Shown here: piece after piece, positions 1,583 through 46,912 of the stretch
Position numbering within the stretch: the first letter of the stretch is position 1
Layout of the letters: each line of letters opens with the position of its first letter
NCBI GenBank assembly: GCA_029976805.1
Contig: JAPOLY010000001.1
Coordinates: forward strand, 49,309-113,308
Reading direction: 5' to 3'
Length of the DNA: 64,000 nucleotides
From: a bacterium
Lineage (GTDB): Bacteria > Planctomycetota > UBA8108 > UBA1146
Notes under the pieces: generated by a model
Databases searched by the model: none
What the model was told of the DNA's origin: nothing
What the model saw: only the letters and a program-made list of their open reading frames with translations
Position numbers and translations under genes: made by a program

Positions 1583-2770
1583 TTGCGAAAACTGTTGGCC
1601 CTGACCACGAGCCGTGCTGATTGGGGACATTTGTCCTCGCCCCTCAAAGCCCTGCGACGGGTTTCCGGGCTTCAGGTGTCTCTCGCAGCACTGGGCTCAC
1701 ACCTTTCACCCGAGTTTGGCTACACCGTCGATGACATTCTCGCCGATGGGTTTGAAGTGGATCACCGGGTGGAGTGTCTGCTCAGTAGTGATTCTGAACA
1801 GGGAATGGCGAAAACCATCGGATTGGCGACCCTCTCTCTTTCCGACCTTTTCGCCAGAGAAAAGCCGGACCAGCTTCTTCTGATCGCCGATCGTTATGAA
1901 ATGCTTGCACCCGCCTCTGTTGCTTTGGCTCACAGAATCCCTGTGGCGCACATTGAAGGGGGAGAGGTTTCCGAGGGGGCCATCGATCATGCCGTCAGAC
2001 AGGCATTGACCTCGATGTCGCATATCCACTTCGTTCCAACCGCCACTGCCCGCAAAAGGTTGCTGGCTTTCGGAGAAGAACCCTGGCGTATTCATCAGGT
2101 GGGTGCCCCCAGTATCGATCATCTGGTTGCAGGGAAATCACTGTCAGAAGTGGAAGTCCGAAAGACGCTGGATTTGAGAGAGGGTGTTTCTCCTCTGGTG
2201 GTCGCATGGCACCCGACGACCCTTGATGGAAATGTGGCTCTGGAAACAGATCCTTTTTTCGCTGCTCTCGAGACTGTCCGGGAGCCCCTGATTTTCTGTT
2301 TTCCCAATGCGGATGCAGGTAGCCGGGCGATTCGGGATCGGGCCCGAGAGTATTGTTCTCGTCATGACCACGCCTCGATGCACGTCAATCTTTCCCATCA
2401 TCTGTATTGGGGTTTGCTGAGAGTCGCCAAAGGAATCATCGGCAACTCTTCCAGTGGGATTATGGAAGCCCCGGCCATCGAATTGCCCTGTCTGAATGTG
2501 GGCCGTCGCCAACAGGGACGTGAACGCAGTCGCTGCATTGTCGATGTTCCTGCAGTCGAACAGGAAATCGTCACCGGTCTTGCAAAAATCTGCGACCCCG
2601 AATTCAAAGCGTCCCTGAACGGTATGACTCACGCTTATGGAGACGGAAACGCCGGGGAAAGAATGGCATCGGTTTTGGCAGATCTTCCGAGTCGCGAAAA
2701 ACTGTTGTTGAAGAGAGCGATGCCCGCAAACAGGATTCCGGAAATTCCCGAGTGGCAACCGGAGGACTGA
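1583..2770 (+). CDS. neuC: UDP-N-acetylglucosamine 2-epimerase, hydrolysing (NeuC/LegG family)
   Basis: TTSRADWG, ADRYE, HIEGGEVSEGAID, FPNADAG, GNSSSGI and YGDG motifs; TTG start. Confidence 0.85.
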   Translation: MRKLLALTTSRADWGHLSSPLKALRRVSGLQVSLAALGSHLSPEFGYTVDDILADGFEVDHRVECLLSSDSEQGMAKTIGLATLSLSDLFAREKPDQLLLIADRYEMLAPASVALAHRIPVAHIEGGEVSEGAIDHAVRQALTSMSHIHFVPTATARKRLLAFGEEPWRIHQVGAPSIDHLVAGKSLSEVEVRKTLDLREGVSPLVVAWHPTTLDGNVALETDPFFAALETVREPLIFCFPNADAGSRAIRDRAREYCSRHDHASMHVNLSHHLYWGLLRVAKGIIGNSSSGIMEAPAIELPCLNVGRRQQGRERSRCIVDVPAVEQEIVTGLAKICDPEFKASLNGMTHAYGDGNAGERMASVLADLPSREKLLLKRAMPANRIPEIPEWQPED

Positions 2771-2780
2771 GCTGTCGGAG

Positions 2781-4382
2781 TCAGTTCCTGTTTTGCAGAG
2801 TCCTGCCAGCGGCTGCGCGAATGACCACCCACATCGAGTCAACCTCCGCCACCTTCAGCCAACGACCCACCCCTGTGGCAATCAATACTCCCAGCAGGAT
2901 CGCAGTACCCAGAATCAGGTAGGCCCGCCCCGGAAATCCGGGGGTCCAGTCGGTGAGACCCTGAATCCAGTGATGAGCCCCCTGATGAACGACGAGAATC
3001 AACAGGGTCAATTTCAGTCCTTGGCTCCATCGAAGACGGGGGAGAGTCAGTGATCGACGAATCAATCCCTGCAGTGCCAGCCAGGTGAAGATTGCTGAGA
3101 TGACATAGGACTGGGCAATCAGGTCGGTACCCACCTCGAAGAATCCTCCGAATAGAATGACGGTTTGCAGGATGAGACCGAGCAGCGTGATCCCCAGTAC
3201 TGCCTTGCGAAGACCGAGTGTGATGGCGGTTCTCTGCAGGCCGACATTCAAGGCTGCAAAGGGGATCGCCAGGCAGTACCAACTCAGGATTTCTGCAGTT
3301 TTCAGTCCATCCGCGGGTGTGAATTCGCCCCACACAAAAAACGATTGAATTACGAGACCTGCAGTGGCCAGTAGCCCGGCACCGGCGAGTCCCCCGACAA
3401 ATGCGGTCAGTCGCTGATTGCGCGTCAGCATTCTGGAGAGCTGTCCCCGTTGTCCCCGGCTGAGGAGGTCTGCGGATTCGTCGGCGGCGACGATGCCGCT
3501 GCTGACACCGATCAGTGCGATGGGGAAAAAGTGAAATCGGAAAGCGGTTTCGAGGCAGGTCAGGCTTCCGGTCTGCAGCCCCGAGGCGAGATGAAAGGCG
3601 AGCAGGGAATACGATTGGATGAGAATCTGACTGAGGAGGAGAGCTCCAAAGTCGAGAAGGAAACGGCCATGACCGGGGACCTTCCAGCGCAGTGTCGGCC
3701 AGGGGATCGGGGCATGACGGGAAACATCGCGAAGCATCCCCAGAGCCCCCAGCAAGGCACCTCCCAGAAAGGCCCAGATCCACCCCTGTGCCCGTTCAAG
3801 GTCCGAGACTCCCATGACCAACATGATGCTTCCGGAGGCCAACAGGGTCAGATTCTGGAAGATCTGTGGCCTCAGAGCCTGAGAGTCCTGGCGATGGCAG
3901 TGCAGCAAACCTCTGAAGACGGCAAAGAAGGGAACGAGGGCGAGATAGGGCAGGAGGCTTCGCAGTCCGCGGACTGCCTGATCCCTGTTCTCGAGTCCGG
4001 GAAAAACCGTACCGATGATCCAATCGGCCTGCCAGGCGAGCACGGTGAGAAGGGTCAGCGACAGCAGGGTGATGGACCCCATCGCCGCACGGGCGAATTG
4101 ATGACTGGCAGTGGAATCCGCAGACTGCTGTTGCTCCCGGTAGGCCGGTGAAAAAGAGGCAGAAAGCGCTCCTTCAGAAAGCATGTCGCGGAGAATCACC
4201 GGAATTCGCAGTGCCGCCCGAAGTGCATCCGCAGTGGCACTGGCACCCAACAAGGTGGTGAGAAGAATATCCCTGAAGAGGCCGAGGATTCTGGAGATCA
4301 GCATCGTTCTGCCGAGAGGGCCGACCCGACGTACCTCCGCATCGCCTCGATCAGTTTTTGGCGAGTTCTCAGGGGGCATCAC
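2781..4382 (-). CDS. murJ: Lipid II flippase MurJ/MviN, divergent
   Basis: SRILGLFRD, ADA..AALRIP, EGALSASFSP, A.RF..FPIALIG and WGEFT..D motifs; many TM segments. Confidence 0.8.
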   Translation of the reverse strand: MMPPENSPKTDRGDAEVRRVGPLGRTMLISRILGLFRDILLTTLLGASATADALRAALRIPVILRDMLSEGALSASFSPAYREQQQSADSTASHQFARAAMGSITLLSLTLLTVLAWQADWIIGTVFPGLENRDQAVRGLRSLLPYLALVPFFAVFRGLLHCHRQDSQALRPQIFQNLTLLASGSIMLVMGVSDLERAQGWIWAFLGGALLGALGMLRDVSRHAPIPWPTLRWKVPGHGRFLLDFGALLLSQILIQSYSLLAFHLASGLQTGSLTCLETAFRFHFFPIALIGVSSGIVAADESADLLSRGQRGQLSRMLTRNQRLTAFVGGLAGAGLLATAGLVIQSFFVWGEFTPADGLKTAEILSWYCLAIPFAALNVGLQRTAITLGLRKAVLGITLLGLILQTVILFGGFFEVGTDLIAQSYVISAIFTWLALQGLIRRSLTLPRLRWSQGLKLTLLILVVHQGAHHWIQGLTDWTPGFPGRAYLILGTAILLGVLIATGVGRWLKVAEVDSMWVVIRAAAGRTLQNRN

Positions 4383-4458
4383 TTCTCCTCTTTGCAGCCT
4401 CGAGGCCGAATGATAGCGGATTCCCGTGGAGTATGGCTATCGACGATTCGACACCGAC

Positions 4459-4494
4459 AAAAAAAGAGGCCCGGGAGTGATTCTCCCGGGCCTC
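4459..4494 (-). terminator. Intrinsic terminator after the 4521-7760 gene
   Basis: GAGGCCCGGGAG-TGATT-CTCCCGGGCCTC hairpin preceded by A7 on + (U-tract on -). Confidence 0.85.
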
Positions 4495-4520
4495 CAATCT
4501 GCCTTGTTCCTGAAGAAAGA

Positions 4521-7500
4521 TCAGGGGCAGGGGTCGTAGGCGCCACAATCGAGGCTGTCCGCAGTCGGGTCATCGCCACATGCACCGAATGGATCGGGAA
4601 GGGGGCCGGAACCGCTAAAGAGGCTACCCAAAGAGGAAATCGCATCGGCAATGTTGATGCTGCCGTCGTCATTGGAATCGCAAGAATCGACGCAGGTTCC
4701 GTCGGGTCCTCCCGAGAAGAGGTTGCCGAGAAGGAAGACGGCGTCGGCGATGTTGAAGGCCCCATCCGAGTTGCAGTCACCTCTCTGGAAACCACCTCCG
4801 GGGGTGACACCGCCACCCGCCAGGAAATCGCGGTAAGCCGCAACCAGAGCGTTTTGATCTCCACCATATCCACCCAACTCGAAGGAAGAGCAGATCACGC
4901 GTCCACCGTTGCCAGGAATGTAGGCAGTGGTGACCCCGTAGGCGAGACCAAGGGCGTCATCGAACTGCCACACCAGACCTGCATCTCCGCCAGCAGGTTC
5001 AGCCGTGGCAGGGATCAGGATATTGGTGAAGTCATTGGCGTTGCCGGTCGCAGACTGGTTGTCCTGGTTGTAGGGCACATTCTGATTGGCGGACATGTCG
5101 AGGCCGAGGCCGCTGTCCTGACCATCGAGGCTGACCAGTGAATCGGTGTCGTCCTGAGCGTAGGGCTCAGCGACTCCGTCGCGGTCATCGAAGGCGGAGA
5201 TCGGATGCTGGAAACTCCAGTGGTCTGCACTCTCGAAGTAGATGGCGACTCCCGCTTCCGCAAGGCTTGCAACCAGATTGGCCTCGTCAACGTTGAGCTT
5301 GGCGTTGGTGGGGAAGGTACCGAGGAGGATCCAGACCTGCGAAACCTGTGCCGGATCGAGGCAGAGGTATTCGTCGATCTGCATGCGCACCAACTTGGAG
5401 TTGGCCCCCGCTGCAAGAAGTGCCTGCTGGACAGCAGCACCGGTATCGTTGGATCCGGTGTCTCCACCGTCGAAGAGACCTTCCATGGCGATCACGATGG
5501 TGTCTTCGCCATTGTAGCTGTAGTGATCGGTGGACCCGGAGGCTTCGCCGGCACCGGCAGTACAGTTGCCTCGCACGATGTAGCTCAGGAAGCCCTCTGG
5601 CGGAGAAGCGTCCGAGTAGGTCGTGGCATCACCGGGCAGGTTAGCGATCACGACACCGTCGCGCTCGATGGTGACTCCGGTGTAAGCACTGTTGTTGATC
5701 CAGGCCAGATCGACACTGTCGAGGGCACAGGAACTGGTAACAGTCAGATCGGTTGGGGCATTGCATTCCGCAGCACAAACCTGCAGGGCCCAGCCGGAAA
5801 GGGTGGCGGTCGCAGCGGTGTTCGCCACAGTCAGTGTCCAGTCACCACCGAGAGTCTCACCGTCGAAATCAGCCAAAATACCCGGACCGGACGGAATCAG
5901 GGATCCGAAACCGTCATTGTTGCCAGTGGCATCATCGAAGCGTCCGATCAGATCGGTTCCGGCACCGTTGTCATGCAGGCGAATACTGGTGCCTGCCGGA
6001 GAGAGCAGGTCGATGGCCACGCCGCTCAGATCCGGTGCTGCCAGATTCATGTCCACGTCGAGGTCGTTGATACCGATCAGCGAAGTGGGGTCGATACTGA
6101 TGGTGTAGGTTTCGACACCATTGATGGCCGCAGGCTGGGCGATCTGAACGCTCCAGCTGTCGAGGGTTCCACCTCCGGTACTGGGGAAGATATCCGCGAT
6201 CACGATGGCCCAGCTGCCACTGACCGGCTCACCGTCGAAATCGGCAAGGGATCCGGTGCCCTGGGAAAGGGCGTAGGGCTGCATGCGGACGCCACTGAAA
6301 GTGGTGTTACTGCCGTAGGGAACTCCTTCGTCATCGAAGATCAAGTTCATGTTGTCATCGGAGTTGTTTTCGTTCTGGTACAGACGCACCTGAGTGTTGC
6401 TGGGTGCGACCACATCGATGTCGAGGTTACCGATGAAGCCGTGGGTGATATTCACGCCGACGTCGAGGTCATCGATGGTTCCGGTTCCGGTGACATTGAT
6501 GGTGTCAAAGGTGAAGTTGGTTGCAGGGTCACCCACATAGGCGATCGGTGCCGCGGGTGCACTGGTGCCACCGATACCGATGAAGCCGTCGAAGGAAAGG
6601 TTCGGATTCGGGAACTGGTGACAGTCTGCAGGCGGGCAACTGACGGTCAGGGTGAGATCACCCCGCTCGCCATTGAAGCCACCAATCTGGACCAGGTAGG
6701 TCTCACCGGCGATGGCGTCGAGGAAGATCTCCGGCTCACCGGAACCGACACAGCTTCCGGAGTCACAGGCCAGTTCTGATGCGGCATCCGGAGGGCAGGC
6801 AGAGGTTCCAGGGTAGATGGCCATCTGAGGGTTGAAGTCGGCCGTGCCGCAGGTGGTTAGCGTGATGAGTCCACTGCAGGACGCGGTGTAGAGGTACCAG
6901 ACGTCATTGAGATTGCTGCCACCGCATGAGGAGGGACCATCACTGGAGGCTCCCAGAGTGGTGACGGCGACGCTTCCCTCACCAATGGGGGTGGCGTCCG
7001 CACAGTTGTCATTGGCAGGCGGTGCCGCACAGAAGGGGTCACCGGTGCAGTCGTCATCAAGGCAGTCCACAAGTCCGTCGCCATCGTCATCGCCACCGTT
7101 GTCACAGACTTCAGGGCAGATGTTAGGCAGTCCCGGGGTATCCAGAGTGAGATCTCCGAAGGGCTGGATCTCCCAGCTACCGTTTCCGTCAGGGCAGCGG
7201 ACGGGGTGAGCCGGGACAAAGGTGCCATCGGGACCCAGAGTGGTGGAGCAGTAAACGAGTTCTCCGCCAGTGGGAAGTCCGGTCGTCGGATCCAGAGGAT
7301 TTTCGAGGACGGCCAGGCAGTCGATGATGGATGTCCATGGAGTGACATCGAGAACACCGTCGTCATCAGTGTCCAGATCATCACCGGCGGCACCTGTGAA
7401 TCCTTCGACGAGAAGGTGGGTGACGTTGTCGCTGTTTTCAAAGGCGAGATCGGTGATCAGATCTGCGGTTCCCAGAGTGAAGGAACTTTCTGCAGCCACA

Positions 7501-7760
7501 AAGATCCCGGTCAAACCGATGGAGTTTCCGGCGAGACTGACGACGGCTTCCACGGTTCCACTGCCGGTGGAGCCATCACCGATGACGATGTAGGTGAAGG
7601 TATCCAGACTCGAAGCCGCTGGACCCCACAACTCAAAATATTCATCAGTGTCTGAACCACCCTGATCGATGCGGAATTCATTGATCGTCACCTGGGCCTG
7701 GGCCGAAACGGTGAAGACGGTGAAAAGGAGCAGGAGCACCCCTGTTAAAACTCTGTTCAT
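4521..7760 (-). CDS. Secreted modular Cys/Asp-rich surface protein 1: lamin-tail-like domain, Cys-Asp repeat, PxNDxC domain, two proprotein-convertase P-domain-like modules, FN3-like module, shared ~230 aa domain, dockerin-like tail
   Basis: ATG 7760 with GGAGG RBS; signal peptide ending AQA; VTINEFRID start; two DLDV...LADFDGE..G.W modules; FQRGDCNSDG...DSNDDGSINIAD tail. Confidence 0.8.
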   Translation of the reverse strand: MNRVLTGVLLLLFTVFTVSAQAQVTINEFRIDQGGSDTDEYFELWGPAASSLDTFTYIVIGDGSTGSGTVEAVVSLAGNSIGLTGIFVAAESSFTLGTADLITDLAFENSDNVTHLLVEGFTGAAGDDLDTDDDGVLDVTPWTSIIDCLAVLENPLDPTTGLPTGGELVYCSTTLGPDGTFVPAHPVRCPDGNGSWEIQPFGDLTLDTPGLPNICPEVCDNGGDDDGDGLVDCLDDDCTGDPFCAAPPANDNCADATPIGEGSVAVTTLGASSDGPSSCGGSNLNDVWYLYTASCSGLITLTTCGTADFNPQMAIYPGTSACPPDAASELACDSGSCVGSGEPEIFLDAIAGETYLVQIGGFNGERGDLTLTVSCPPADCHQFPNPNLSFDGFIGIGGTSAPAAPIAYVGDPATNFTFDTINVTGTGTIDDLDVGVNITHGFIGNLDIDVVAPSNTQVRLYQNENNSDDNMNLIFDDEGVPYGSNTTFSGVRMQPYALSQGTGSLADFDGEPVSGSWAIVIADIFPSTGGGTLDSWSVQIAQPAAINGVETYTISIDPTSLIGINDLDVDMNLAAPDLSGVAIDLLSPAGTSIRLHDNGAGTDLIGRFDDATGNNDGFGSLIPSGPGILADFDGETLGGDWTLTVANTAATATLSGWALQVCAAECNAPTDLTVTSSCALDSVDLAWINNSAYTGVTIERDGVVIANLPGDATTYSDASPPEGFLSYIVRGNCTAGAGEASGSTDHYSYNGEDTIVIAMEGLFDGGDTGSNDTGAAVQQALLAAGANSKLVRMQIDEYLCLDPAQVSQVWILLGTFPTNAKLNVDEANLVASLAEAGVAIYFESADHWSFQHPISAFDDRDGVAEPYAQDDTDSLVSLDGQDSGLGLDMSANQNVPYNQDNQSATGNANDFTNILIPATAEPAGGDAGLVWQFDDALGLAYGVTTAYIPGNGGRVICSSFELGGYGGDQNALVAAYRDFLAGGGVTPGGGFQRGDCNSDGAFNIADAVFLLGNLFSGGPDGTCVDSCDSNDDGSINIADAISSLGSLFSGSGPLPDPFGACGDDPTADSLDCGAYDPCP

Positions 7761-7941
7761 TTGATTTTCCTCCAGAGTGGAACCCTCGCGTACCACTCAG
7801 TTGAAGTCGCATAAAACTTTGAATCTTGTTCTGCCAGATGATTGTCCATCAGTGATGAGTACCGTCGAAGGAACGATCAAACCGAGGTCTGAATCCGTGA
7901 ACCCAATAGTGAACCCATATTGTGAAAATCACCCACATCTC

Positions 7942-7970
7942 ATCGTAAGGGTCGAATAGGACTCTGGCAA
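7942..7970 (-). promoter_or_regulatory. Sigma70-like promoter for the 4521-7760 gene
   Basis: Minus strand TTGCCA-17 nt-TACGAT. Confidence 0.55.
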
Positions 7971-8015
7971 CATTCTCGGCCCTCGATCTTTCCCGGAATC
8001 CGCTGTTTCAGGGCC

Positions 8016-8061
8016 AAAAACAAAAAAATGGGTGGTGAGAGGAAAGCCTCTCACCACCCAT
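8016..8061 (-). terminator. Intrinsic terminator after the 8099-11545 gene
   Basis: 15 bp perfect stem ATGGGTGGTGAGAGG-AAAG-CCTCTCACCACCCAT preceded by A-tracts on +. Confidence 0.9.
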
Positions 8062-8098
8062 CAAGCGGACCTCATGAGATCCGATTCGCCGCTGTGGA

Positions 8099-11000
8099 TT
8101 AGCAGCCGTTGTAAGTGTCGCAGGTCAGACCATCGTCGGTCGGATCTTCGCCACAAACTGCCGGTCCCGGATCAGTCGGTGCAGGTCCACCGGAGAAGAG
8201 GGCAGCCAGACCGTAGATGGCGTCGGCGATGTTGACGCCGCCGTCGTCGTTCTGGTCACAGCTGTCGGCACAACCACAGGGGGTACCACCGGAGAAGAGG
8301 GCTGCCAGCAGGAAGACCTCGTCCGCGATGTTGAAACCACCGTCTTGGTTGGTATCACCACGCTTGAAGACGGGACCTCCGCCACCACCGCTCAGGAACT
8401 CAGCGTAGGCAAGAGACAGTGCAGACTGGTCTCCACCGTAACCACCGATCTCCCAGGACTGAACCACAGTGTTACCACCGACGGTGGTCTCACTGGCGAT
8501 ACCGGTGTTGTACTGCGGAATCGCTGCGCCAGTAGTGGGGTCGACAAGGGCGTCGTCAGAAGCCCAAATGACTCCAGCAGCGGCCACTCCGGCATCCGCA
8601 CCGGCAAGGGTCAACTGGTCAGTCCAGTCGTTGTCAGCCTGGTCCTGAGTGTAGGCCACGTCCTGGTTGGCACTCATGTCGAGTCCTGCACCAGAATCGA
8701 AACCGTCCATGGAGGTGAAGGTATCATCTCCGTCACCGGTGTCGTAGGTGCCGTCATCGACACCGTCACGGCCGTCGAAGAGGGAGGCGACGTGGAGGAA
8801 TCCGAAGTGATCTCCACCCTCGAAGTAAACGCCTTTTCCGGCTTCACCGAGGAGGGCCAATTCGTCACCTTCAGCGGCGGTGATGCGGTAGTCGTTGGGG
8901 ACCGTACCGGTCAGCGCCCAGATGTTGGCAACGCCGGCATCGCTGGCACAGGGGTAATCGACCCAGCTACCGCGAACGATGGCAGCGTCGCGACCAGCAC
9001 CGACGAGGGCGCTGAGAAGCAAATCGCCACTGTCGACAAGACCGACGTCTCCGCCAGTCTGAAGTCCCTCGACTGCGAAGATCAGATCGGTCTGACCTGC
9101 GTAGGTGAGCACGGAAACGCTGAGACCAACGGGGTTCGGACCACTGCCGCAATCGGTGACCACCTCGTACTGGTAGGTGCCGTCAGCCACGCCAAGATCG
9201 ACGTAAGTGGCGTCAGCAGCACCCAGAGTGGCCACGGAGACACCGTCACGAAGGACCTCTTGAGAGGATGCATTCGGGTTCGGGGTCCAGTTGAGGGTCA
9301 CGTCACCATTGGTGCAGTCAGCGGCACCGGTGAGGTTGGTCGCCGGAACGCAGTCATTAATGGTGTACTCAAGGGTTCCCACACCGGCAGCGTTGAAGGT
9401 ACCAAGGCGGATCAGGTATTCCTGACCAGCAGTGGCAGCGAAGACAGTCTCCGCAAGGAACACGTTGCAGGCGGGGTTGTTGGTCGGGTTGGCACCCACA
9501 TTGACGTCGTCACTGCAAGCCACGACCAGAGTCGGATCATCGAGCAGTGCGGCATCGTAGGTGTAGACGGCCAACATGGTGTCGGCACCGGCAATCACAG
9601 TATTCGGGCTGCAGGTGCTCACCAGCAGATCCCCGTCCACGGATGCGGTGTAACGAAGGAAGATGTCGTTGTTGATCTGGGTGATTCCGGTTCCGGGGTC
9701 ACAAACAGCCAGATCGATCGGCACACCGGTTGTGGTGGTGTAAGGCGTCGCAATCTCCTGCTGGAAAGTTCCAACAGCAGCAACGGAAGCACCAGCGGGC
9801 CAGTTATTGGCCGGAGCAGTCTGCAGGGTGCAACCGGCAGAGTTGATCAGAGCACCGGTACCACCTGCTCCAGACCAAGAGGTGATCAGAACATCGAGGT
9901 CCTGATACTCCGGCTGGGGAAGGGTCAGGAAGGAAAGATCAGTAGAGGGCAAGGTGGCTTCGACATTGCCATCGATCTCGATGATCCAGGAAGCGGCTCC
10001 TCCGGCATCATCCCAAGTCAGGTTCCAAGAAGTATCTCCCACGTTCTGATCGCACTGGAGATTGGCGATTCCACCCGCAGATCCGCAGGTTCCTGCAACA
10101 GCAACGGAGTAACCGATATCCATGATGTAACGGTTGTTGGGGAAACCAATTCCTGAAAGGGGGCTCGGTGAAGCGAGTCCACAAGCACCAGCAACGATGT
10201 AGCTGGTTCCAATCTCACCAGTGGCAGTAGCGTCAGTGAGTCCCATGTACCAGGAGTCTCCACCGTTGGCATTTCCATCGGGGGTGAAGATTTCCACAGC
10301 CAGATTTGCACTGGGGCCATAGGAAGTCATGCACTGAAGGGTGTTGGAGTTGGCGCCCAATCCATCAGGATCGACGACACCGGTTCCGAGAATGAAGTTG
10401 TAGATGTTGTCAGCAAGTTCAGGAACCTGGAACTCTTCCTCGTACACCATCAGCATGGTGGTGTTACCGGGATCGGGGGTTTGTCCGACGTTGGTTCCGG
10501 CAAGGTAGGTGAAGTTCTGGGGGCCACCTCCATTGAGGTCGATGATCAGACGGATACGAACCGGCTGGGTTCCACCTGCGAGCGCAGGGGTCGAAACGTT
10601 GACAGCAGTGGTCACACACTCGACGGTAATCTCGTCACTGACGCTGTAGCCGTTGACCAGATCGAAGGAACGCAGGTAAGAGTTGTCTGCATGAATACCA
10701 CCGGCACCACAGGCGACACCGCCACCGAGCGGAAGAACCGTCGGGATCGGAATCATGGAGCCAACCACAGTTGACGGGCAGGGCTCGGCAATGAAAACGG
10801 TGCAGCAGATCTGAGCACTGGCAACACCAGCGACCACACCCTCAAGACAAATGACGGTCAGACCCGGGGGGAATCCGGTCAGAATGTCCGTTGCCGCTCC
10901 GGCAGTTCCATCAAAGGTACCGGTGAGGGTTCCGTTGAGGTAGTAGTTCACAGTGTCGTACTGATCCTGGTTTTCCCAGGTCAGAGTCGCGGTGTCGGTT

Positions 11001-11545
11001 GGCTCATCGTAAGCGCAAACCAAGTTTGCGGGTGCGATGGTGCCCAATGTGAAGGTGACGTCCATGTCTGTTGTTCCAACAGAAGCGGCGTCCCAACCAC
11101 CGACACGAATGAAGTAGGTAACACCGGCGAAAACACCCGCACCTACGAGGTCGGATCCAAAGGCGGTGCATCCGGCTCCGTCACCGTTACAGCCGATCTC
11201 GATGAGACCAGTGCAACCTGCGGAGGCATCATAAAGAATGATATCTGTATCAAGACCGCCTGGATTGACACAGGTACTCAGGTCGAGAAGACCATTGGCC
11301 GGAGCAGTCCAGCTGAACCAGACATCTGACTCAGTCGTTCCCAAAGCGGTGCCGGGGCAGGTCGCGCCTCCAGCGGGAATCGCAGTGCTGCTGGTTGCAG
11401 CGGTGTTGTCGATCGCCACCGTCACCGTACCCGGTGCGGTCAAGTTGATCGGCTGAGCATTGGCACATTCATCCGCTCCCTGTGCGCCAACGACGCCACA
11501 GGAGAGAATCATGAATGCAGCCACCAAAAACGGTAGGTGTCTCAT
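8099..11545 (-). CDS. Secreted modular Cys-rich surface protein 2: two PxNDxC-type domains, FN3-like modules, shared ~230 aa domain, dockerin-like tail
   Basis: ATG 11545 (MRHLPFL) with AGGAAGGG RBS and signal peptide; FKRGDTNQDG...DQNDDGGVNIAD tail ending YNGC. Confidence 0.8.
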   Translation of the reverse strand: MRHLPFLVAAFMILSCGVVGAQGADECANAQPINLTAPGTVTVAIDNTAATSSTAIPAGGATCPGTALGTTESDVWFSWTAPANGLLDLSTCVNPGGLDTDIILYDASAGCTGLIEIGCNGDGAGCTAFGSDLVGAGVFAGVTYFIRVGGWDAASVGTTDMDVTFTLGTIAPANLVCAYDEPTDTATLTWENQDQYDTVNYYLNGTLTGTFDGTAGAATDILTGFPPGLTVICLEGVVAGVASAQICCTVFIAEPCPSTVVGSMIPIPTVLPLGGGVACGAGGIHADNSYLRSFDLVNGYSVSDEITVECVTTAVNVSTPALAGGTQPVRIRLIIDLNGGGPQNFTYLAGTNVGQTPDPGNTTMLMVYEEEFQVPELADNIYNFILGTGVVDPDGLGANSNTLQCMTSYGPSANLAVEIFTPDGNANGGDSWYMGLTDATATGEIGTSYIVAGACGLASPSPLSGIGFPNNRYIMDIGYSVAVAGTCGSAGGIANLQCDQNVGDTSWNLTWDDAGGAASWIIEIDGNVEATLPSTDLSFLTLPQPEYQDLDVLITSWSGAGGTGALINSAGCTLQTAPANNWPAGASVAAVGTFQQEIATPYTTTTGVPIDLAVCDPGTGITQINNDIFLRYTASVDGDLLVSTCSPNTVIAGADTMLAVYTYDAALLDDPTLVVACSDDVNVGANPTNNPACNVFLAETVFAATAGQEYLIRLGTFNAAGVGTLEYTINDCVPATNLTGAADCTNGDVTLNWTPNPNASSQEVLRDGVSVATLGAADATYVDLGVADGTYQYEVVTDCGSGPNPVGLSVSVLTYAGQTDLIFAVEGLQTGGDVGLVDSGDLLLSALVGAGRDAAIVRGSWVDYPCASDAGVANIWALTGTVPNDYRITAAEGDELALLGEAGKGVYFEGGDHFGFLHVASLFDGRDGVDDGTYDTGDGDDTFTSMDGFDSGAGLDMSANQDVAYTQDQADNDWTDQLTLAGADAGVAAAGVIWASDDALVDPTTGAAIPQYNTGIASETTVGGNTVVQSWEIGGYGGDQSALSLAYAEFLSGGGGGPVFKRGDTNQDGGFNIADEVFLLAALFSGGTPCGCADSCDQNDDGGVNIADAIYGLAALFSGGPAPTDPGPAVCGEDPTDDGLTCDTYNGC

Positions 11546-11761
11546 AGGTGAAAACCCTTCCTGGTTAATGAATCCCTTTACCGGAATTCGGATATCCATT
11601 GCGAAAGTCAAAATTCCTCGCAGGAATAAAAACAAATCCAAAGTTTCATGACAGAAGCACAAGCCCTGACGGACACCTGATGATCGGAGAGATTCCGATC
11701 TGTCAGACCACCTGAAAAGACCGCAAGTTGTCACAAAGTTACATTTAGCCCATTAACTTCA

Positions 11762-11789
11762 AATTTACCGGACATTCAGCACGGGTCAA
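11762..11789 (-). promoter_or_regulatory. Sigma70-like promoter for the 8099-11545 gene
   Basis: Minus strand TTGACC-16 nt-TAAATT. Confidence 0.5.
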
Positions 11790-11837
11790 GCACCCGCTCC
11801 GGTCTCAAAAAAGCCTTAATTAGTCTAGGGGAGTGTT

Positions 11838-13886
11838 TCAGGGACAATTTGCCGATTCGTCACAGGTCAGGAGAGTCGCTTTCGTGGGATCTTCTCCACA
11901 GGCTCCTTCCGGCTCAGGCAGGCTGGGAGATCCTGGAACAAAGAGGTGTGAGAGCAGAAAGATGGCATCCGCCAGATTGACTCCTTCGTCGTCATTACAA
12001 TCTGCAGAATCCCGACAATCGACCATGGCCGACCCTGGAACAAAAAGTGACTCAAGAAGGAAAATGCCATCGGCAAGGTTGACCGAATCGTCACCGTTGA
12101 TGTCTCCCCGGCGGAAGGGCGAGGCGATGAAGGACCCCTTGAAGGAGGCGATGAGATGAGTATCCGGGTATCCGAGATCTGAAAGTGGAACGGGAAGATC
12201 ATTGCCACAGAACGGAGCCGAGAATCGGGTGGGATCGGACTCTCCGGAGTCGTTGGTTCCCAGAATCAGCAGATGGCCATTTGCCGTGCCATCAGGCAGA
12301 TGAAATTCGACGACCACATTCATGCCGCAGGGAAGTTCCACAGGGTTGTCCAGAGTCAGGCACATGTGGGATGTCTCGAATGCGGGGACTTCGAAGGACT
12401 GTTCATGAATCAAATCCAGCAAAGAAGGATCGTTGATTCCGGACCCGGTCTGATCTTCATAAATCCGCAGGACGAGCGGCTGCACAGTAAAACCGGTCCC
12501 CGGATTGGAGTTTTCAATGCCGATGCGGATCGCCTCGAGATTCATGCCATTGCTGAGCTGAAAAGGGCTTTCACACGGGGAAAGTAGTCGCCATAACGAT
12601 TGGGCCTGGTGACCGGTCGCGTCTCCACAAAAGGGTGTTCCCTGAGTGATGCTTTCTGTATCCACACTGTGACTGATCTCAACAGTTGCGGGATCACAAC
12701 CGGGTGCCAACAGGTCGCAACTGACAGAGGGGGTCCAACTGTTGCCTGAAAATCCTTGCGCCTCAATGCGTACCAGGGAAGGAAGACTGGCTGTCACTCC
12801 AGCCCAACTTCCAGGATTTGCAGGCACGGTATCGATCAGAATCCCATTTACGCGAATCTCAACGAAATCTGCAGAAGTGCTCGGATCCCATGAAGCAAGG
12901 AGGGTTCCGTCACTCAAGGAGGAGCAGGAAAATCCGCTCAGTGCAGGAATCAGGGTTGGGCAATCATCGTGCCCCTCGACTACTGATATGGTGTTGCTTG
13001 AGTTGTCGACCACCCAATAGGAAGAGATACCGAATGGATCTGCAGTCGGTGCTGAAGCGGGTCGCGAACTCTCGACGCCATTGATAAAGAAACCGTGATT
13101 ACTCAAATCGACCGGTGCCAGTGCGATGGAACTTTGAGTGGATACGGAAGACAGGGTGGTGACGCGTCCAGCAAGATCATGCCCATGGGGAATGCTGAGC
13201 CGGTTGCAGTCGGCTCGAAACGCCAGACCGTTTCCGAGCCCGTTACCATCGGGGTGGTTCACTGAATTTCCAAGATAGGATCCATCGTTGATGGAGAGCA
13301 GGTCATAACGATCCGCAGTGATATCTGCTGCCCAGATGCCATCGGCTCCATCCCAGCACAGTCCACCAATGAATCCTCCGCCCTGAATATCCGCGATTCC
13401 GACGAGCAGGGGATCTGTTCCATCCGGATTGGAGCGCCAGATCTCATTGGGTCCAGGTGGGTTGATCACACCCCAGTAAAGCCATGTTCCATCGGTGGTC
13501 ACACCGGTCACGGAGATCCCTGCAGGAGGATTCAGAATCGGACCAATAGGGGCAAGGGTCAGGGCATCGTAGACCCAGCTCTCTGCACTGAAGAGTTCGG
13601 CGACGACCACGATGGGTTGAGCCCAGGGATTGTTGTCTGGCATGAAGCAGATGCCATAGGCACTGGTACCGGAAAGAGGGAAGGGCCCTGCCAGAAGATC
13701 CGCAGGATTCATCGGCGCTGTAGAAGTGGCCGAATTTCTGTCCTGTTCAAGCAATCCACGAGGAATCCCCTGGGCCACCACCTCCGAGGCGCTGAGCCAG
13801 AAAATCAGTATCGGAATCAGAACTGGAATCCGGGAGTGGATCCCCTTGCCCAAAATTCGGGCAGGAGTCATTCGTGGCATCTTCAT
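11838..13886 (-). CDS. Secreted modular protein 3: probable beta-propeller N-terminus, FN3-like module, domain shared with protein 2, dockerin-like tail (start uncertain, 13880-13958)
   Basis: Hydrophobic signal ending VVA-Q; repeated DGxWLYW / WDGADGIW blade-like motifs; FRRGDINGDDSVNLAD...DCNDDEGVNLAD tail. Confidence 0.7.
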   Translation of the reverse strand: MKMPRMTPARILGKGIHSRIPVLIPILIFWLSASEVVAQGIPRGLLEQDRNSATSTAPMNPADLLAGPFPLSGTSAYGICFMPDNNPWAQPIVVVAELFSAESWVYDALTLAPIGPILNPPAGISVTGVTTDGTWLYWGVINPPGPNEIWRSNPDGTDPLLVGIADIQGGGFIGGLCWDGADGIWAADITADRYDLLSINDGSYLGNSVNHPDGNGLGNGLAFRADCNRLSIPHGHDLAGRVTTLSSVSTQSSIALAPVDLSNHGFFINGVESSRPASAPTADPFGISSYWVVDNSSNTISVVEGHDDCPTLIPALSGFSCSSLSDGTLLASWDPSTSADFVEIRVNGILIDTVPANPGSWAGVTASLPSLVRIEAQGFSGNSWTPSVSCDLLAPGCDPATVEISHSVDTESITQGTPFCGDATGHQAQSLWRLLSPCESPFQLSNGMNLEAIRIGIENSNPGTGFTVQPLVLRIYEDQTGSGINDPSLLDLIHEQSFEVPAFETSHMCLTLDNPVELPCGMNVVVEFHLPDGTANGHLLILGTNDSGESDPTRFSAPFCGNDLPVPLSDLGYPDTHLIASFKGSFIASPFRRGDINGDDSVNLADGIFLLESLFVPGSAMVDCRDSADCNDDEGVNLADAIFLLSHLFVPGSPSLPEPEGACGEDPTKATLLTCDESANCP

Positions 13887-14139
13887 CTTCCCCATCAAGG
13901 ACAGTGATATAGGTTGCTCCTGTATACACAGAAGCGGGTTTTGGCCGCCCTTTGTCATATTTGTGCCCCCAAGATTAGCGGGGGGGGAAGTGGCAAGCGA
14001 GGGGTGAGGGACGCTTCTGGCACTTCTGTCATGAATGACAGGTCTGACATTTGGGAATGTCGATCTTCAACGAGGATTCCTGAAATCGTCGTCTTTGGGA
14101 CCAGATCGGGAATAACAGCATGGCCTTGACCTGGAAGAC

Positions 14140-14177
14140 AAAAAAAAGGGCCCCTCTGCGATTGCAGAGGGGCCCTT
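14140..14177 (-). terminator. Intrinsic terminator after the 14225-17503 gene
   Basis: AAGGGCCCCTCTGC-GATT-GCAGAGGGGCCCTT hairpin, with an A8 tract on + running into its left arm. Confidence 0.9.
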
Positions 14178-14224
14178 CGCGAAACCTTCCCGAAAAGGAA
14201 AGGCTTCAGAACTTCCGGCCAGGC

Positions 14225-17200
14225 CTAGGGGCAGGGCGGGAAGGAAGCACAGTCGAGCGGATCAGTGTCGGTCGGATCGATTCCGCAGCTGGTCGGCGTC
14301 GGAGCAGGTCCGCCACTGAACAGGGCTGCAAGAGCGTAGATCGCGTCCGCAATGTTGATACCGCCGTCGTCGTTGGCGTCGCAGGAATCCAGACAGGTTC
14401 CAGCAGGGCCACCACTGAAGAGGGCTGCCAGCAGGAAGATGGAGTCAGCAATGTTGAATCCACCGTCAGCGTTGCAGTCACCACGGACAAACTCAGGAAG
14501 GGTCGGTCCGCCACCACCACCACCGAGGGCAGCAATGATATCGGCAGCCAACAGAACCTGATCGCCTCCGTAACCACCAAACTCCCAAGACTGGACGAGC
14601 ACGTTACCGATCGGTGAGCCCGCAAGATCCTGGTTCTGGCTGTACGCTCCGGTGATGTAGGCACCGTTACCCTCTTGCCAGATGGCGCCGACATTCGGTC
14701 CACCTGCTTCAGGTCCGACAGTCAACTGGTCGGTCCAGTCGTTTCCTGCAGCGTCCTGGTTGTAAGGAACGTTTTGGATTCCACTGAAGTCCACACCGAG
14801 AAGTGTGTCCAGACCACTGACACTGAGGAAGGTGTCGTCACCATCCAGAGCGGAGAGAATGCCGTCATAGCCTTCGAAGGCTCCAATGGTGGGAGCGAAG
14901 CCCCACATGTCGCCACCCTCGAAGTAAACGCCGATTCCAGCTTCAACCCAAAGGGCCAGAGCATCGGAATCTGCAGTCGTCATGGGACCATCCTCGGGGA
15001 AGGTACCACTGCAGACCCAGACACGCTCGTAGGTGCCAATGACGTTACCCAGCTGGGAAGCCGGGAAGTCGACCACGGTCAGGAAGCTGATGCCGTTGGC
15101 GGTCAGGGCTGCCTCAAGAGCTGCAGAACTGTTGATTTGTCCGAGGTCAGATTCCGTCTTGAAGATGATGTCGGTCTCTCCGCCACTGGCGCAGGAGACA
15201 TTGACAAAGACCGAAGCGGAAACGGCACTGCCGGAAGCACAGTTACCCGTCACGGTGTACTCGTAGGTACCGTTGCTGAGTGCAGTGGAATCGGTGTAGG
15301 AAGTGGTTCCTGCAGCGAGGCCAGCGGCCAGAACGACACCGTCACGAAGAACGTCGTAGGTATCGAATCCACCGTCGTCCCAAGTCAGGCTTGAGGTGCT
15401 GGTGGCACAGTCGTAGGTAGCAATGAAGTTGCTGATGGCCGTGGCACCACAGCTGACGCTGATGTCGAGGAAACCGGCACCCAGGGCACCGTTCCAACCA
15501 CCGACCTGAACGTAGTAGCTTTCTCCGGAGATCACGGGAATCTCGACGGAAGACATGAAGGCAGCGCCACCCGCGACATTGGTGCAATTGTCGTCACCGG
15601 AAGCGAGGCAGGTTGCACCCGCAGTCGGGCAACCGGCAAGACCGTCGTAGACGATCAGAACAGTGTCGTCGTTGGATCCACCACCATCGCAGGTTTGAAT
15701 CACAGCAGTACCGTCGGCAGTCGCGGTGTAGAGGAACCACACATCGTTGGTCATGTTGGCATCGCAGTCGATAGGGCCAGCAGTGGTAGAGACAGTGTTG
15801 TCCCAGGCAAAGTTGCCTTCACTCACCAGCTCAGCGTTGTCACAGGTATCGTTGGGAGCACCCGGACATGGGGCAGTGTTGACGCAATCGGGATCGAAGC
15901 AGTCAGTGAGGCCATCGAGATCGTTGTCGATACCGTCGGCACAGGAAACATCGTCTCCCTCGAAGCAGAGAGGTGCAGTTGCACAGTCCGGATCGGCACA
16001 GTCGGCGAGGGTGTCACCGTCATTGTCGATGCCGTCATCGCAGATTTCAGAACCGCAAGCGGGGTCTCCGCCGCAGTCTGCATCCAGGCAGTCAATGTCG
16101 CCATCAAGGTCGTCATCGACACCGTTGTCACAAATCTCGCTACCCGAAGCACAGTTCAGGGTGAGCTCGTAAAGGCCCTGAGAACCACCGAAGCCATGGA
16201 CGACAATGATGTACTCGACACCTGCCACCGAATCCCAGAGGACGGTGGAAAGGAGGCCGGAAGAGCCTCCGGTGCAGTTGTCGTCGTTACCACCCACACA
16301 AATCGGAGTGGCGCAGTCGCCCTCGTAGACACTGATCTTGGTGTCGTACTGTGCGGTGCCACTGCAAGTGGTGGCAATCGTCGTGAAGCCGGTTCCGGTG
16401 TGGGTGTAGTAAACCGCACCACCGGTTCCATTGGAGGTAATGCACAGAGGCAGTGTGGAAGGTGTGGCCAGATTGGTGAATCCGGTCACCACGTCACCAC
16501 ACGAGATCGGAGTAGCCGTATCACACTCGTTATTATCCGGAGCGAGGCAACCGGGGACTCCGACCGGGCAATCGGCCGTATCGATGCAGTCGATCAGGCC
16601 ATCACCGTCGTTGTCGAGGCCGTCATCACAGATTTCAAGACCACAGGGGCCAATACCACCGCAGTCGGCATCTGCACAGTCAATGGCGCCATCGCCATCG
16701 TTGTCGATTCCGTCACCACAGGTGGCAGCATCACCCTCGAAGCAGAAGGGGTCACCGATGCAGTCGGTGTCGAAACAGTCGATGACACCGTCACCGTCGT
16801 TGTCGATGCCGTCATCGCAGATTTCGATTCCGCAAGGGGGAATTCCGGCGCAATCGATGTCCAGGCAGTCGATGGTGCCGTCACCGTCGTTGTCGAGACC
16901 ATCGCCACAGGTGGCAGCGTCACCCTCGAAGCAGTTCGGTGCTCCCACGCAGTCCGGGTCAAAGCAATCGATCAGGCCATCGACATCGTTGTCGATTCCG
17001 TCGTCACAAATCTCAGCTGCAGGGAAGAAGATGTTGAGTGCTCCGTCTCCTTCGGCACCATTCCAGCCGCCGACCTGAACGTAGTAGTTCTCACCGGCGA
17101 TCACGGGAATCTGAACCTGAGACATGAAACCGGCTCCACCGGCGACGTTTTCGCACTCGTCGTCACCGGAAGCGAGGCATGCCGCTCCGGCAGTCGGGCA

Positions 17201-17503
17201 ACCGGCCAGACCGTCATAGACGATCAGAACAGTGTCGTCATTGGTACCACCACCGAGACAAGTCTCGATCACGGCAGTGCCGGAGGCGGTGGGGGTGTAG
17301 AGGAACCACACGTCAGTGGTCATGTTTGCGTCGCAGTCATTGGGGCCTTCGATCAACGACCCGGTGTTGTCCCAGGGGAAAGAGCCCTCTCCGACAGCTT
17401 CAGCAGTCAGGCACTCATCATTGAGAGGCTGTGCCCCTGCATTACCCAGCGGAATCAGAGCCGAAATGGCCAGGATTGCCGCAAAAAATATGAAACGCTT
17501 CAT
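14225..17503 (-). CDS. Secreted modular Cys/Asp-rich surface protein 4: three PxNDxC domains, eight CxDGxDNDxDGxxDCxDxDC repeats, FN3-like module, shared ~230 aa domain, dockerin-like tail
   Basis: MKRF signal peptide ending AGA-Q; GGGAG RBS; repeats visible in the translation; [10 protein letters not shown]...[12 protein letters not shown] tail. Confidence 0.85.
15870..17020 (-). repeat. Two blocks (3 + 5) of ~30-33 aa Cys/Asp-rich intragenic repeats
   Basis: For example [22 protein letters not shown] and [27 protein letters not shown]; blocks at about 15870-16140 and 16560-17020. Confidence 0.85.
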
Positions 17504-18335
17504 CTTTTGACTCCCTTTCAGAGGGGTTCCAAAATACCTTTAACTCAGTATCCCGAAAAAGCCGCTGGGTGGTTTCCAGCCGTTTTCCGGAATGATTTTC
17601 AAAAAGACGAATGTCCGAACAGCGGAATTGCCCGCGCCTTCGGCATTCAAATTTAATCCAAAATGTCTCTAACCAAGCCCTAGTAAAGCCCATGTGCATA
17701 CCAGTTGGCCTGAATAGCGGAGGGCCACAATGAAGTACCGGATCTGGGAAGATCCTGCACAATCAGGGCCGGGCCAATGCAGAACACAGATTTTCACGCT
17801 CCGCAGGATTCAAAATTCCCCTAAAAGACCGGGAATCAGTCGAACCCTAATATCGGAACTCGTCGATTGTACACATGATTTTCGGGCCTTGAGAGGGGGG
17901 AGTTGCAAAAAAATCGACTTAGTCAGTCCTGAATGGGTTGTTCAGGGCATGAATTAAAGGGTTGTCGACATTTAGGAGAGTACGGATCTGCCGATATGAC
18001 CCCGATTGAGGCAACTCCGTTACTGTTGCCGATACTCCCTTGATGCATCAGGGAGTGAATTGCCCCTCAACAGGGAAGGTCGGCATTGATTGCCGAAGTC
18101 GCAGCCAATTCCCAGTTTCTGAAAGCGATCCACCTTTCCCTAGTACCGTCACTGCGCAGAGTTTCAGCGGGCGGGTTCCCTCGATTTTAACCCTGTACAG
18201 CCTTACCTTGTTGACCGAACAGGTGACAGGGCGAAGTGCAAGTCCTCCGGACGATCAGGAGACTGCTCCCACTGTCCAATCGGAATTCCACCTCGGGCCG
18301 ATTTCCCGGAGTTGGTGTGAGAAAGGCTGAAGATC

Positions 18336-40586: not shown

Positions 40587-40608
40587 TCTCGATTTTATCG
40601 AGATCCCA

Positions 40609-40650
40609 GCGGGAGGGCGGGGTGCATGTCATGCCCCGTTCGTTGACCGC
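40609..40650 (+). promoter_or_regulatory. Probable L1-binding autoregulatory leader of rplKA
   Basis: GCGG-GA-GGGCGGGG...CCCCGTTC-GTTGA-CCGC: two helices around an asymmetric GA/GA loop just before the rplK RBS. Confidence 0.55.
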
Positions 40651-40666
40651 AGGATAGGCAGAGATC

Positions 40667-41778: not shown

Positions 41779-41805
41779 GAGCCGCGAAGCTGGAAAGGAG
41801 GGCCC

Positions 41806-42336: not shown

Positions 42337-42341
42337 CTGAC

Positions 42342-46908: not shown

Positions 46909-46912
46909 TCCA

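Follow-up and report, generated by a model that had tools for sequence, protein, structure and literature searches.

A cysteine-rich dockerin tail on four tandem secreted proteins of a marine planctomycete and its likely place in a large non-cellulolytic cohesin-dockerin system

We analysed a stretch of 64,000 nucleotides, hereafter the window, from the metagenome-assembled genome (MAG) GCA_029976805.1 of a marine planktonic member of the Planctomycetota (GTDB lineage Bacteria; Planctomycetota; UBA8108; UBA1146), corresponding to positions 49,309 to 113,308 of contig JAPOLY010000001.1. On its minus strand lie four reading frames, at 4521-7796, 8099-11734, 11838-13958 and 14225-17503, whose products end in one common C-terminal module of about 95 residues. 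The four genes most likely encode non-catalytic proteins that serve, as cargo or as structural subunits, in a large, non-cellulolytic cohesin-dockerin system at the cell surface, most of which is encoded elsewhere in the genome (2.88 Mb in 171 contigs, 91% complete). Their tail is not a new kind of tag but a variant of the characterised dockerin family, and the usual type of partner of that family is present in the same genome. We consider it probable, although by no means assured, that the tail works by docking to these cohesin-like modules. The probable coding sequences are the following:

4521..7760, minus strand: gene 1 (P0001), 1079 amino acids from the ATG at 7760
8099..11545, minus strand: gene 2 (P0002), 1148 amino acids from the ATG at 11545
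11838..13958, minus strand: gene 3 (P0003), 706 or 681 amino acids, with its start at 13958 or 13883
14225..17503, minus strand: gene 4 (P0004), 1092 amino acids, with its start at 17503

The original prediction, made from the window alone, described four co-oriented genes with Sec signals and one shared tail, and this description was confirmed. The N-termini of all four proteins, read off the translations without a predictor, begin with charged residues, continue with a hydrophobic segment and then show a cleavage-type site of small residues. When the four tails are aligned, 42 of 107 columns are invariant, and the tails of genes 2 to 4 share 48-66% identity with that of gene 1. A profile built from the four tails and run against all reading frames of the genome recovered the window tails at E-values of 2e-43 to 3e-46, a likeness far beyond chance. 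The tail coordinates first proposed were correct to about 30 bases, and the tails are now placed as follows:

4521..4820, minus strand: dockerin tail of gene 1, two calcium-loop/helix repeats plus a Pro/Cys extension, in the six-Cys form
8099..8398, minus strand: dockerin tail of gene 2, from alignment and profile
11838..12137, minus strand: dockerin tail of gene 3, from alignment and profile
14225..14524, minus strand: dockerin tail of gene 4, in the six-Cys form and modelled (see below)

All four tails present the hallmark of dockerins, that is, two segments of about 22 residues in which a calcium-binding loop is followed by a helix. In the consensus of the 121 copies found in the genome, two nearly symmetrical DxNxDG-type loops, each with an amphipathic helix behind it, are combined with an inter-repeat Cys found in nearly every copy, a Pro-rich segment, a CG-x-DPT motif and, at the end, two more Cys, the final one usually placed before a terminal Pro. 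In type I dockerins, nearly symmetrical repeats go with a dual binding mode. The last Asp of both loops is invariant among 105 tails, and the profile of these 105 tails matches solved type I dockerins, with 2y3n_B as the best (E 1.9e-8) and CelS at 2.5e-6. The match covers profile positions 13-70; positions 71-100, a Pro- and Cys-rich extension of about 30 residues, have no counterpart in the solved dockerins. An AlphaFold2 model of the gene 4 tail (predicted local distance difference test, pLDDT, 89.2; predicted template modelling score 0.80; pLDDT 80-91 in the extension) also has the dockerin fold. Its top 30 or so Foldseek matches in the PDB are dockerins, with root-mean-square deviations of 1.6-2.0 Å over 54-63 columns, target template modelling scores of 0.65-0.79 and a probability near 1; owing to the small size of the domain, no E-value is better than 0.03. 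NCBIfam has no model that matches the tail, and 15 of the 121 tail-bearing proteins pass the gathering cut-off of Pfam Dockerin_1 (PF00404; 22.9 bits). On this evidence, the early description of the tail as dockerin-like held up, and we are nearly certain that it is a dockerin-fold module.

The Cys residues that set the tail apart were originally taken to be disulfide partners, and their distribution supports that proposal. Among 117 tails, the Cys of the CG motif and the terminal Cys are both present in 86 and both absent in 23, while 8 tails have only the second and none has only the first (p 6e-18). The Cys residues of loop 1 and loop 2 occur together in 25 tails and are both missing from 89, with two tails having only the first and one only the second (p 4e-22). 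The inter-repeat and post-DPT Cys are found together in 114 tails; one tail has only the first, one only the second and one neither (p 0.034). This co-occurrence implies that two to three disulfides would staple the tail, with the extension tied back onto the core.

The array had also been regarded as a system of its own, and this part did not survive the genome-wide count. Taking as carriers all reading frames with a four-tail profile match at a domain E<1e-5, we found the tail in 121 frames of the genome, so it is not peculiar to the four window genes. In 110 of them the tail lies no more than 12 residues from the stop codon. Of the 103 carriers whose 5′ end is intact, 89 have a signal-peptide-like N-terminus according to a crude scan, and in most of the other 14 such a segment is visible behind an alternative start. 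The tail marks a large part of the secretome.

A C-terminal module on so many exported proteins might be a sorting or secretion signal that follows the logic of the C-terminal domain of the type IX secretion system (T9SS CTD) or of PEP-CTERM, in which case a dedicated machine would read it and the dockerin fold would be a mere scaffold. The terminal position on proteins with signal-peptide-like N-termini fits this idea, as do the heterogeneous cargo, the more than 100 copies per genome found class-wide, as for known sorting domains, the Cys-Pro with which the extension usually finishes at the very C-terminus, and the presence of the Pfam domain GBD_T9SS_assoc in six carriers. Nevertheless, 11 of the 121 copies are N-terminal or internal, five of them directly after the signal peptide, and 9 of these 11 still align into the extension. 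Together with database proteins that hold 2-12 copies, they argue that the tail is a module and not merely a terminal signal. Furthermore, neither the calcium-loop residues nor the helical dockerin fold has been lost, and cohesin-like modules have expanded along with the tail and in the same proteins. No candidate machine was identified either; a search of the genome for SprA (TIGR04189) gave no match, but the positive-control genomes were silent as well, and this result is hence uninformative. All in all, a sorting signal seems to us a decidedly unlikely explanation of the tail, and we continue with docking to cohesin-like modules.

The absence of a recognisable cohesin had been noted for the window, and it is true that there are no cohesin-like modules within it, but it does not extend to the genome. 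The genome matches Pfam Cohesin (PF00963) weakly in four places, once above the cut-off (24.3 bits) and always in tail-bearing proteins, and one carrier reaches 32.1 bits to the same family in the carrier scan. A hidden Markov model seeded on these four regions and iterated on the genome frames converged after three rounds and detected 86 modules in 53 frames at E<1e-5. The tail is also present in 46 of the 53 frames, and of the seven frames without it, four are cut by contig ends. When a profile of 67 modules was compared with the PDB, 14 of the 16 matches at E<=1 were cohesins, the best being 5lxv_A (4e-6), 3l8q_A (8.7e-6) and 4uyp_A (2.8e-4). When these modules were scanned singly against Pfam, 5 of the 67 matched Cohesin at E<=0.01 and none matched another family. 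Thus, from what their sequences suggest, the modules are probably very divergent cohesin-like domains of a kind that routine annotation misses.

A single module is present in 24 of the tail-bearing cohesin-like proteins (for instance, C129_15538_16398), and the genome contains multi-cohesin proteins of the scaffoldin type as well, with two modules plus the tail in fifteen proteins and three modules plus the tail in six (for instance, C32_3665_5542). The absence of the second Cys pair from a tail shows no overall association with carrying cohesins (30/15 vs 56/16, p 0.2), although the three-cohesin proteins stand out, as five of the six have the tail variant without that pair. Tail carriers and cohesin-bearing frames together occupy 257.5 kb, or 9.0% of the assembly, when counted as stop-to-stop frames. 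The cohesin-like modules nearest to the window belong to four genes (G000:C123:26721-45225) that lie 4-23 kb upstream of its start. The same part of the contig, G000:C123:21378-45225, holds six more tail-bearing genes, which makes ten in 45 kb with the four of the window; among these neighbours are a 1606-residue M4 peptidase that carries two cohesin-like modules, along with one-, two- and three-module proteins. Gene runs that resemble scaffoldin clusters were observed on several contigs, for example six genes in a row on C32 (2-10164, L093) and five on C129 (8255-16398, L139), with each gene encoding one to three cohesin-like modules and the tail.

It is conceivable that the tail is a true dockerin-fold calcium-binding domain whose partner is something other than the cohesin-like modules, such as an envelope glycan, peptidoglycan, an S-layer-like coat or other proteins, or that it is a mere stabiliser in calcium-rich sea water. 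The extension is unprecedented among the matched solved dockerins and could form a new binding surface, the sequence evidence for the cohesin assignment is weak, and other planctomycetes have many dockerins with zero to two cohesins per genome, according to the CAZy sheet of PMC6461901. Such low published counts may, however, reflect standard models that miss divergent cohesins, as they do here. In addition, a partner of another kind would leave aside 86 modules in this genome whose sole detectable relatives are cohesins, which share 46 of their 53 proteins with the tail and have the same taxonomic range. We therefore find a different partner rather improbable, although less so than a sorting signal. 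A complex prediction of a cohesin-like module with the tail scored 0.05 against a mark of 0.32; it was run without controls and weighs neither way.

Two adjacent genes encoding He_PIG-repeat proteins, C159_19694_22774 and C159_22774_24231 (locus L190), are candidates for the component that would anchor such a network. Both proteins have a hydrophobic N-terminal segment that ends in a lipobox-type Cys and a C-terminal cohesin-like module, and both lack the tail. The second one (486 residues) has full-length orthologues, with matches at E<=1e-15 in 17 of 18 genomes of the family. Among its loci in 16 genomes from six genera, ours included, the hydrophobic segment with its Cys is kept in all 16, and so is the terminal cohesin-like module (E 1e-19 to 3e-25), while the tail profile matches none. 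C159_22774_24231 is thus a candidate membrane anchor and a predicted lipoprotein, which would be acylated and inserted into a membrane if its lipobox is functional. A lipid-anchored cohesin without a dockerin is what the anchoring scaffoldin of a diderm would look like.

The cargo that would be brought together in this way was assessed by scanning all 121 carriers against Pfam at E<=1e-4. The peptidases and amidases found are a penicillin amidase, two subtilases (S8), two thermolysin-type M4 peptidases, an M12B reprolysin-type peptidase and a trypsin-like peptidase. The nucleases are an endonuclease I with a lamin tail domain (LTD) and an Exo_endo_phos nuclease/phosphatase. Redox proteins are represented by di-haem peroxidases (CCP_MauG in four carriers, DHOR in two), a glucose/sorbosone dehydrogenase and a multi-haem cytochrome-like protein, and there are three alpha/beta-hydrolase esterases. 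Adhesin-type repeats include HYR (5), FG-GAP (8), PKD, cadherin-like, legume lectin and TIG domains, and six carriers, gene 1 among them, have P-domains. Thus, the earlier statement that no catalytic domain is present stands for the four window proteins, as judged by Pfam and NCBIfam, and does not stand for the carriers as a whole.

This inventory bears on whether the system could be an ordinary cellulosome that organises glycoside hydrolases for the breakdown of plant polysaccharides. Dockerins, multi-cohesin proteins and scaffoldin-like gene clusters are indeed all present. Nevertheless, none of the 121 carriers matches a glycoside-hydrolase catalytic family at the threshold used, even if 59 of them have no match to any family, so that novel enzymes are possible; the enzymes that can be recognised are peptidases, nucleases, peroxidases, esterases and an amidase. 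The scanned cohesin-bearing proteins have no carbohydrate-binding module and no anchor of the S-layer homology (SLH) type, and the organism is a planktonic planctomycete of the sea with a 2.9-Mb assembly. An ordinary cellulosome is therefore very hard to credit. The original prediction had proposed a docking or secretion tag for a non-cellulosomal surface structure, and its second half agrees with what we regard as the best reading, a non-cellulosomal surface assembly. The idea of a new tag without a known partner is weakened, since the tail falls into a characterised family whose kind of partner is known.

Both kinds of module are expanded in the sampled genomes of the class and all but missing from other Planctomycetota genomes. 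All 31 class genomes sampled for the tail match its profile, each with 60 to more than 150 scored matches; first-look candidates number as many as 564 in a genome, and one relative, G030, which is assembled in four contigs, has 368. When 151 Planctomycetota genomes were sampled evenly (seven of the class, including our own, and 144 others; E<=1e-8), the tail was found in 7 of 7 class genomes and in 2 of the 144 others, with one or two matches each, and the cohesin-like profile in 7 of 7 and 1 of 144, respectively. Since the class genomes are kin, this amounts to one expansion and not to repeated co-occurrence. Among 1.84 billion representative proteins, the tail profile matches 60,648 at E<=1e-3, 29,326 at E<=1e-10 and 939 at E<=1e-30, and it is in this set that proteins with 2-12 tail copies occur. 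For instance, the metagenome proteins P0125-P0145 have 3-12 copies per chain and no counterpart in this genome. We also observed the tail, at 43-71% identity, on MAG contigs labelled Bacillota (L013, L015, L041 and L081), Proteobacteria (L065) and Nanoarchaeota (L066); mislabelled or mis-binned planctomycete DNA seems a more likely explanation for these than transfer.

How the parts might work together can be outlined as follows. The window proteins would be exported by Sec and would then fold oxidatively, after which the disulfide-tied dockerin tail would bind a divergent cohesin module, of which other parts of the genome encode many. Proteins that bear cohesins, mostly one to three of them together with a dockerin of their own, could act as adaptors or scaffolds that chain, and the conserved lipoprotein that ends in a cohesin and has no dockerin could tether the network to the membrane. 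The outcome would be a multi-protein assembly of the "planctosome" type at the cell surface, non-cellulolytic and with around 120 cargo proteins, including peptidases, nucleases, peroxidases, esterases, adhesin-like repeat proteins and the four window proteins. Every binding step of this outline is inferred, and so are the disulfide pairing, the location of the system in the cell and its biological purpose. A broader proposal, which we offer only tentatively, is that this aquatic class of Planctomycetota uses cohesin-dockerin pairing as a general organiser of its secretome, with about one gene in twenty and 9% of the DNA devoted to it. Disulfide-stapled dockerins, hidden cohesins, a lipoprotein tether and adaptors with one to three cohesins could then gather proteases, nucleases, peroxidases and adhesins at high density on particles or prey.

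Several observations weigh against this account. The four window proteins fall short of the Dockerin_1 cut-off, as they score 17.1 bits, no match, 16.3 bits and 13.0 bits, and the extension that has no solved counterpart could alter binding. The cohesin assignment is weak in sequence, with a best E-value of 4e-6 and 62 of 67 modules that miss Pfam Cohesin at E<=0.01. The position of the tail at the C-terminus of 110 of the 121 carriers also fits a sorting signal, and the joint expansion of the tail and the cohesin-like modules in one clade is a single evolutionary event. Moreover, the lipoprotein status of the C159 anchor relies solely on the lipobox pattern, and the RNA-library contigs that cover genes 1, 2 and 4 (see below) could stem from contaminating DNA.

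Three of the four window proteins have related architectures. Genes 1, 2 and 4 are paralogues across their last 420 residues or so (40-43% identity), a block that consists of an FN3-like module, an alpha/beta domain of about 225 residues, a Gly-rich linker and the tail. In gene 1, this block is preceded by the signal peptide, one acidic double-disulfide repeat, a weak galactose-binding-like domain (GBD_T9SS_assoc, 18.5 bits, under the cut-off) and two proprotein-convertase P-domains (P_proprotein, 72 bits in two stretches). In gene 2, a galactose-binding-like domain follows the signal peptide, and FN3-like modules and unassigned beta-rich regions lie between it and the alpha/beta domain. In gene 4, the signal peptide is followed by three galactose-binding-like regions set between acidic double-disulfide repeats (acid_disulf_rpt, NCBIfam NF033662; 204 bits in eight stretches), so that eight repeats alternate with three copies of around 150 residues; these internal repeats match genes 1 and 2. 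Gene 3 has only the tail in common with the other three, apart from a weak, 22%-identical region shared with gene 2, and it matches no Pfam family beyond the sub-threshold Dockerin_1 score. An ESM Atlas search with gene 3 gave at best 0.87, a lead only, to clusters with an RGI_lyase beta-sheet domain. The domains located in genes 1, 2 and 4 are as follows:

6144..6473, minus strand: best-scoring P-domain of gene 1 (residues 442-551 of the 1091-residue frame)
4839..5465, minus strand: GATase1-like non-catalytic alpha/beta domain of gene 1 (profile match, G000:C123:54147-54773)
11099..11473, minus strand: galactose-binding-like GBD_T9SS_assoc domain of gene 2 (35.9 bits; residues 88-212 of the 1211-residue frame)
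8414..9100, minus strand: GATase1-like domain of gene 2 (profile match)
15965..16051, minus strand: best-scoring acidic double-disulfide repeat of gene 4 (residues 485-513)
14522..15193, minus strand: GATase1-like domain of gene 4 (modelled)

The alpha/beta domain was modelled from 30 homologues (pLDDT 91.7) and adopts the flavodoxin-like GATase1 fold of class I glutamine amidotransferases. VIA-align places it closest to 5xb7_A, the non-catalytic middle domain of a GH42 protein (Z 16.8), followed by 2gk3, STM3548 (15.9), 3rht, a GATase1-like protein of Planctomyces limnophilus (15.2), and the N-terminal domain of IFT52 (13.6), with 177-190 residues aligned in each case and Foldseek E-values of 1.6e-5 and weaker. 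These closest structures are non-catalytic versions of the fold. Among the 13 invariant and 26 nearly invariant columns of the 30 homologues, there is no Cys or His, which means that the Cys-His-Glu triad of the amidotransferases is absent; conservation falls on acidic residues and on Gly, Trp and Ser. The domain, always with the tail behind it, is present in all 25 sampled genomes of the order, mostly in 4-30 copies each, and in none of six genomes of the other orders of the class at E<=1e-10. Nearly all its database relatives are named "hypothetical protein" and come from Planctomycetota MAGs. The four window proteins are thus apparently non-catalytic binding or structural proteins. An LTD in the N-terminus of gene 1, suggested by a resemblance to the LTD motif, was dropped, as Pfam LTD gave no match there at E<=1 and BLASTP against the two LTD proteins of the genome yielded unrelated short segments at non-significant E-values of 0.038 and 0.26.

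The three strong terminators that had been read into the array are present, as hairpins of 13-16 pairs after genes 1, 2 and 4:

4465..4495, minus strand: terminator-like hairpin after gene 1 (13 pairs, T-run)
8027..8062, minus strand: terminator-like hairpin after gene 2 (16 pairs)
14145..14178, minus strand: terminator-like hairpin after gene 4 (15 pairs)

The two promoters proposed with them fared less well. Promoter-like sites exist upstream of genes 1 and 2 (7970-7942 and 11789-11762), but we give them no weight because the scan found four such sites against 5.1 +/- 2.2 in shuffled sequence. In public metatranscriptomes, 28-73% of the words sampled from the region are present in six runs that belong to three studies, and contigs from four runs, placed on 4300-17800, cover genes 1, 2 and 4 at an identity of at least 99%, which is consistent with the transcription of these genes, although such contigs cannot rank them. 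Contig cover of gene 3 was near zero in the four runs, and contig gaps prove nothing. One contig of 3566 nucleotides, 8115-11680, corresponds nearly exactly to gene 2 plus 135 nucleotides upstream of the ATG at 11545. The longest frame of gene 2 opens at a GTG at 11734; as the signal peptide opens at the ATG at 11545 and the RNA-library contig stops at 11680, the shorter start is more likely.

The array is flanked by housekeeping genes, including those for NeuC, a MurJ-like flippase and an aldehyde dehydrogenase, ubiX/ubiE, murQ, tatD, a dGTPase gene, ispD, cysS, nusG, and those for L11, L1, rpoB, rpoC and EF-G. Directly downstream of the array, at window positions 1583-4382, a NeuC-type UDP-GlcNAc 2-epimerase (383 bits) lies beside the MurJ-like flippase (below its family cut-off), and the two may be part of a surface-glycan locus. 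At 39726-54630, the window contains a conserved nusG-L11-L1 ... rpoB-rpoC ... EF-G block, a suitable marker set for phylogenetic placement of the genome.

For the window genes themselves, the result is rather modest, as they would be cargo or structural subunits and not their own system, but it may be of more general relevance. In the published table of PMC6461901, planctomycete dockerins are found by the dozens with zero to two cohesins per genome, and their function was left open. The likely partners surface here once a lineage-specific profile is used, and the lipoprotein with a terminal cohesin is a concrete candidate anchor. If this is true, the puzzle of the "orphan" dockerins in planctomycete genomes would be answered. 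If binding is confirmed, this would be among the largest cohesin-dockerin systems known, held in a small genome and directed at protein, nucleic-acid and oxidative chemistry and not at cellulose, with implications for the processing of particulate organic matter by abundant marine planctomycetes. It would also offer protein engineering a new family of small, disulfide-stabilised and calcium-dependent docking pairs.

Several known systems invite comparison. With the T9SS CTD and PEP-CTERM, the tail shares a terminal position on more than 100 heterogeneous secreted proteins per genome and a restriction to certain lineages. Unlike them, it is a helical calcium-binding dockerin and not a beta-sandwich or a transmembrane helix, and it also occurs at N-termini and in multiple copies. 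The amylosome of Ruminococcus bromii and the NagH/NagJ toxin complex of Clostridium perfringens both use cohesin-dockerin docking outside cellulose degradation. The tail profile matches R. bromii Amy12 (9qfa_A, E 2.4e-5), and 2ozn appeared weakly in the fold search. The amylosome and NagH/NagJ systems have from a handful to a few dozen components and belong to Gram-positive gut bacteria, whereas the system described here is of cellulosome size and its cargo is mostly proteolytic, oxidative or adhesive.

The nearest precedent is the "planctosome", which Andrei et al. (2019, PMC6461901) proposed for the freshwater Nemodlikiaceae (CL500-3, Phycisphaerae) as a combination of cohesins and dockerins without a cellulolytic context. 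In the passages of that article that describe it, the anchor has an LTD, P-domains and a cohesin, the adaptor has a dockerin, HYR repeats and a cohesin, and M12B and M14 peptidases bear dockerins; its CAZy sheet lists up to 42 dockerins and zero to two cohesins per genome, with 33 and 2, respectively, in Rhodopirellula baltica WH47. Both are non-cellulolytic cohesin-dockerin systems of Planctomycetes that are proposed to hold peptidases at the surface, and P-domains, lamin tail domains, HYR repeats and a dockerin-bearing M12B peptidase all recur among the carriers here. For example, C91_1470_4142 combines Reprolysin families and TIG with a cohesin-like module and the tail. The two differ in class and in scale, with 121 dockerins and 86 cohesin-like modules here, and unlike in the planctosome model, no M14 carboxypeptidase was seen among our carriers. 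The anchor described there is an LTD protein, while our candidate is a predicted lipoprotein; two carriers have an LTD here, neither of them with a cohesin-like module. The Cys extension and the block that joins the GATase1-like domain to the dockerin are features of the present system that those passages do not mention for the planctosome. Searches for dockerins of Planctomycetes in largely open-access literature, judged by titles and the openings of abstracts, turned up no report of dockerins expanded across a class, of a Cys-stapled subtype or of hidden cohesins.

The type I cellulosome pairs of Acetivibrio (Clostridium) thermocellum, Pseudobacteroides cellulosolvens and Ruminococcus flavefaciens share with the present system the duplicated calcium loop and helix, the dockerin fold and the multi-cohesin proteins that have a dockerin of their own, and the repeats are near-symmetrical here. 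The differences lie in the diderm planctomycete host, in a cargo in which no glycoside hydrolase was found, in the C-terminal extension of about 30 residues with its predicted disulfide staples, and in cohesins of which Pfam sees 5 in 67. Finally, cellulosomes are anchored by SLH domains or sortase, whereas the candidate anchor in this planctomycete is a predicted lipoprotein with a cohesin-like module at its C-terminus.

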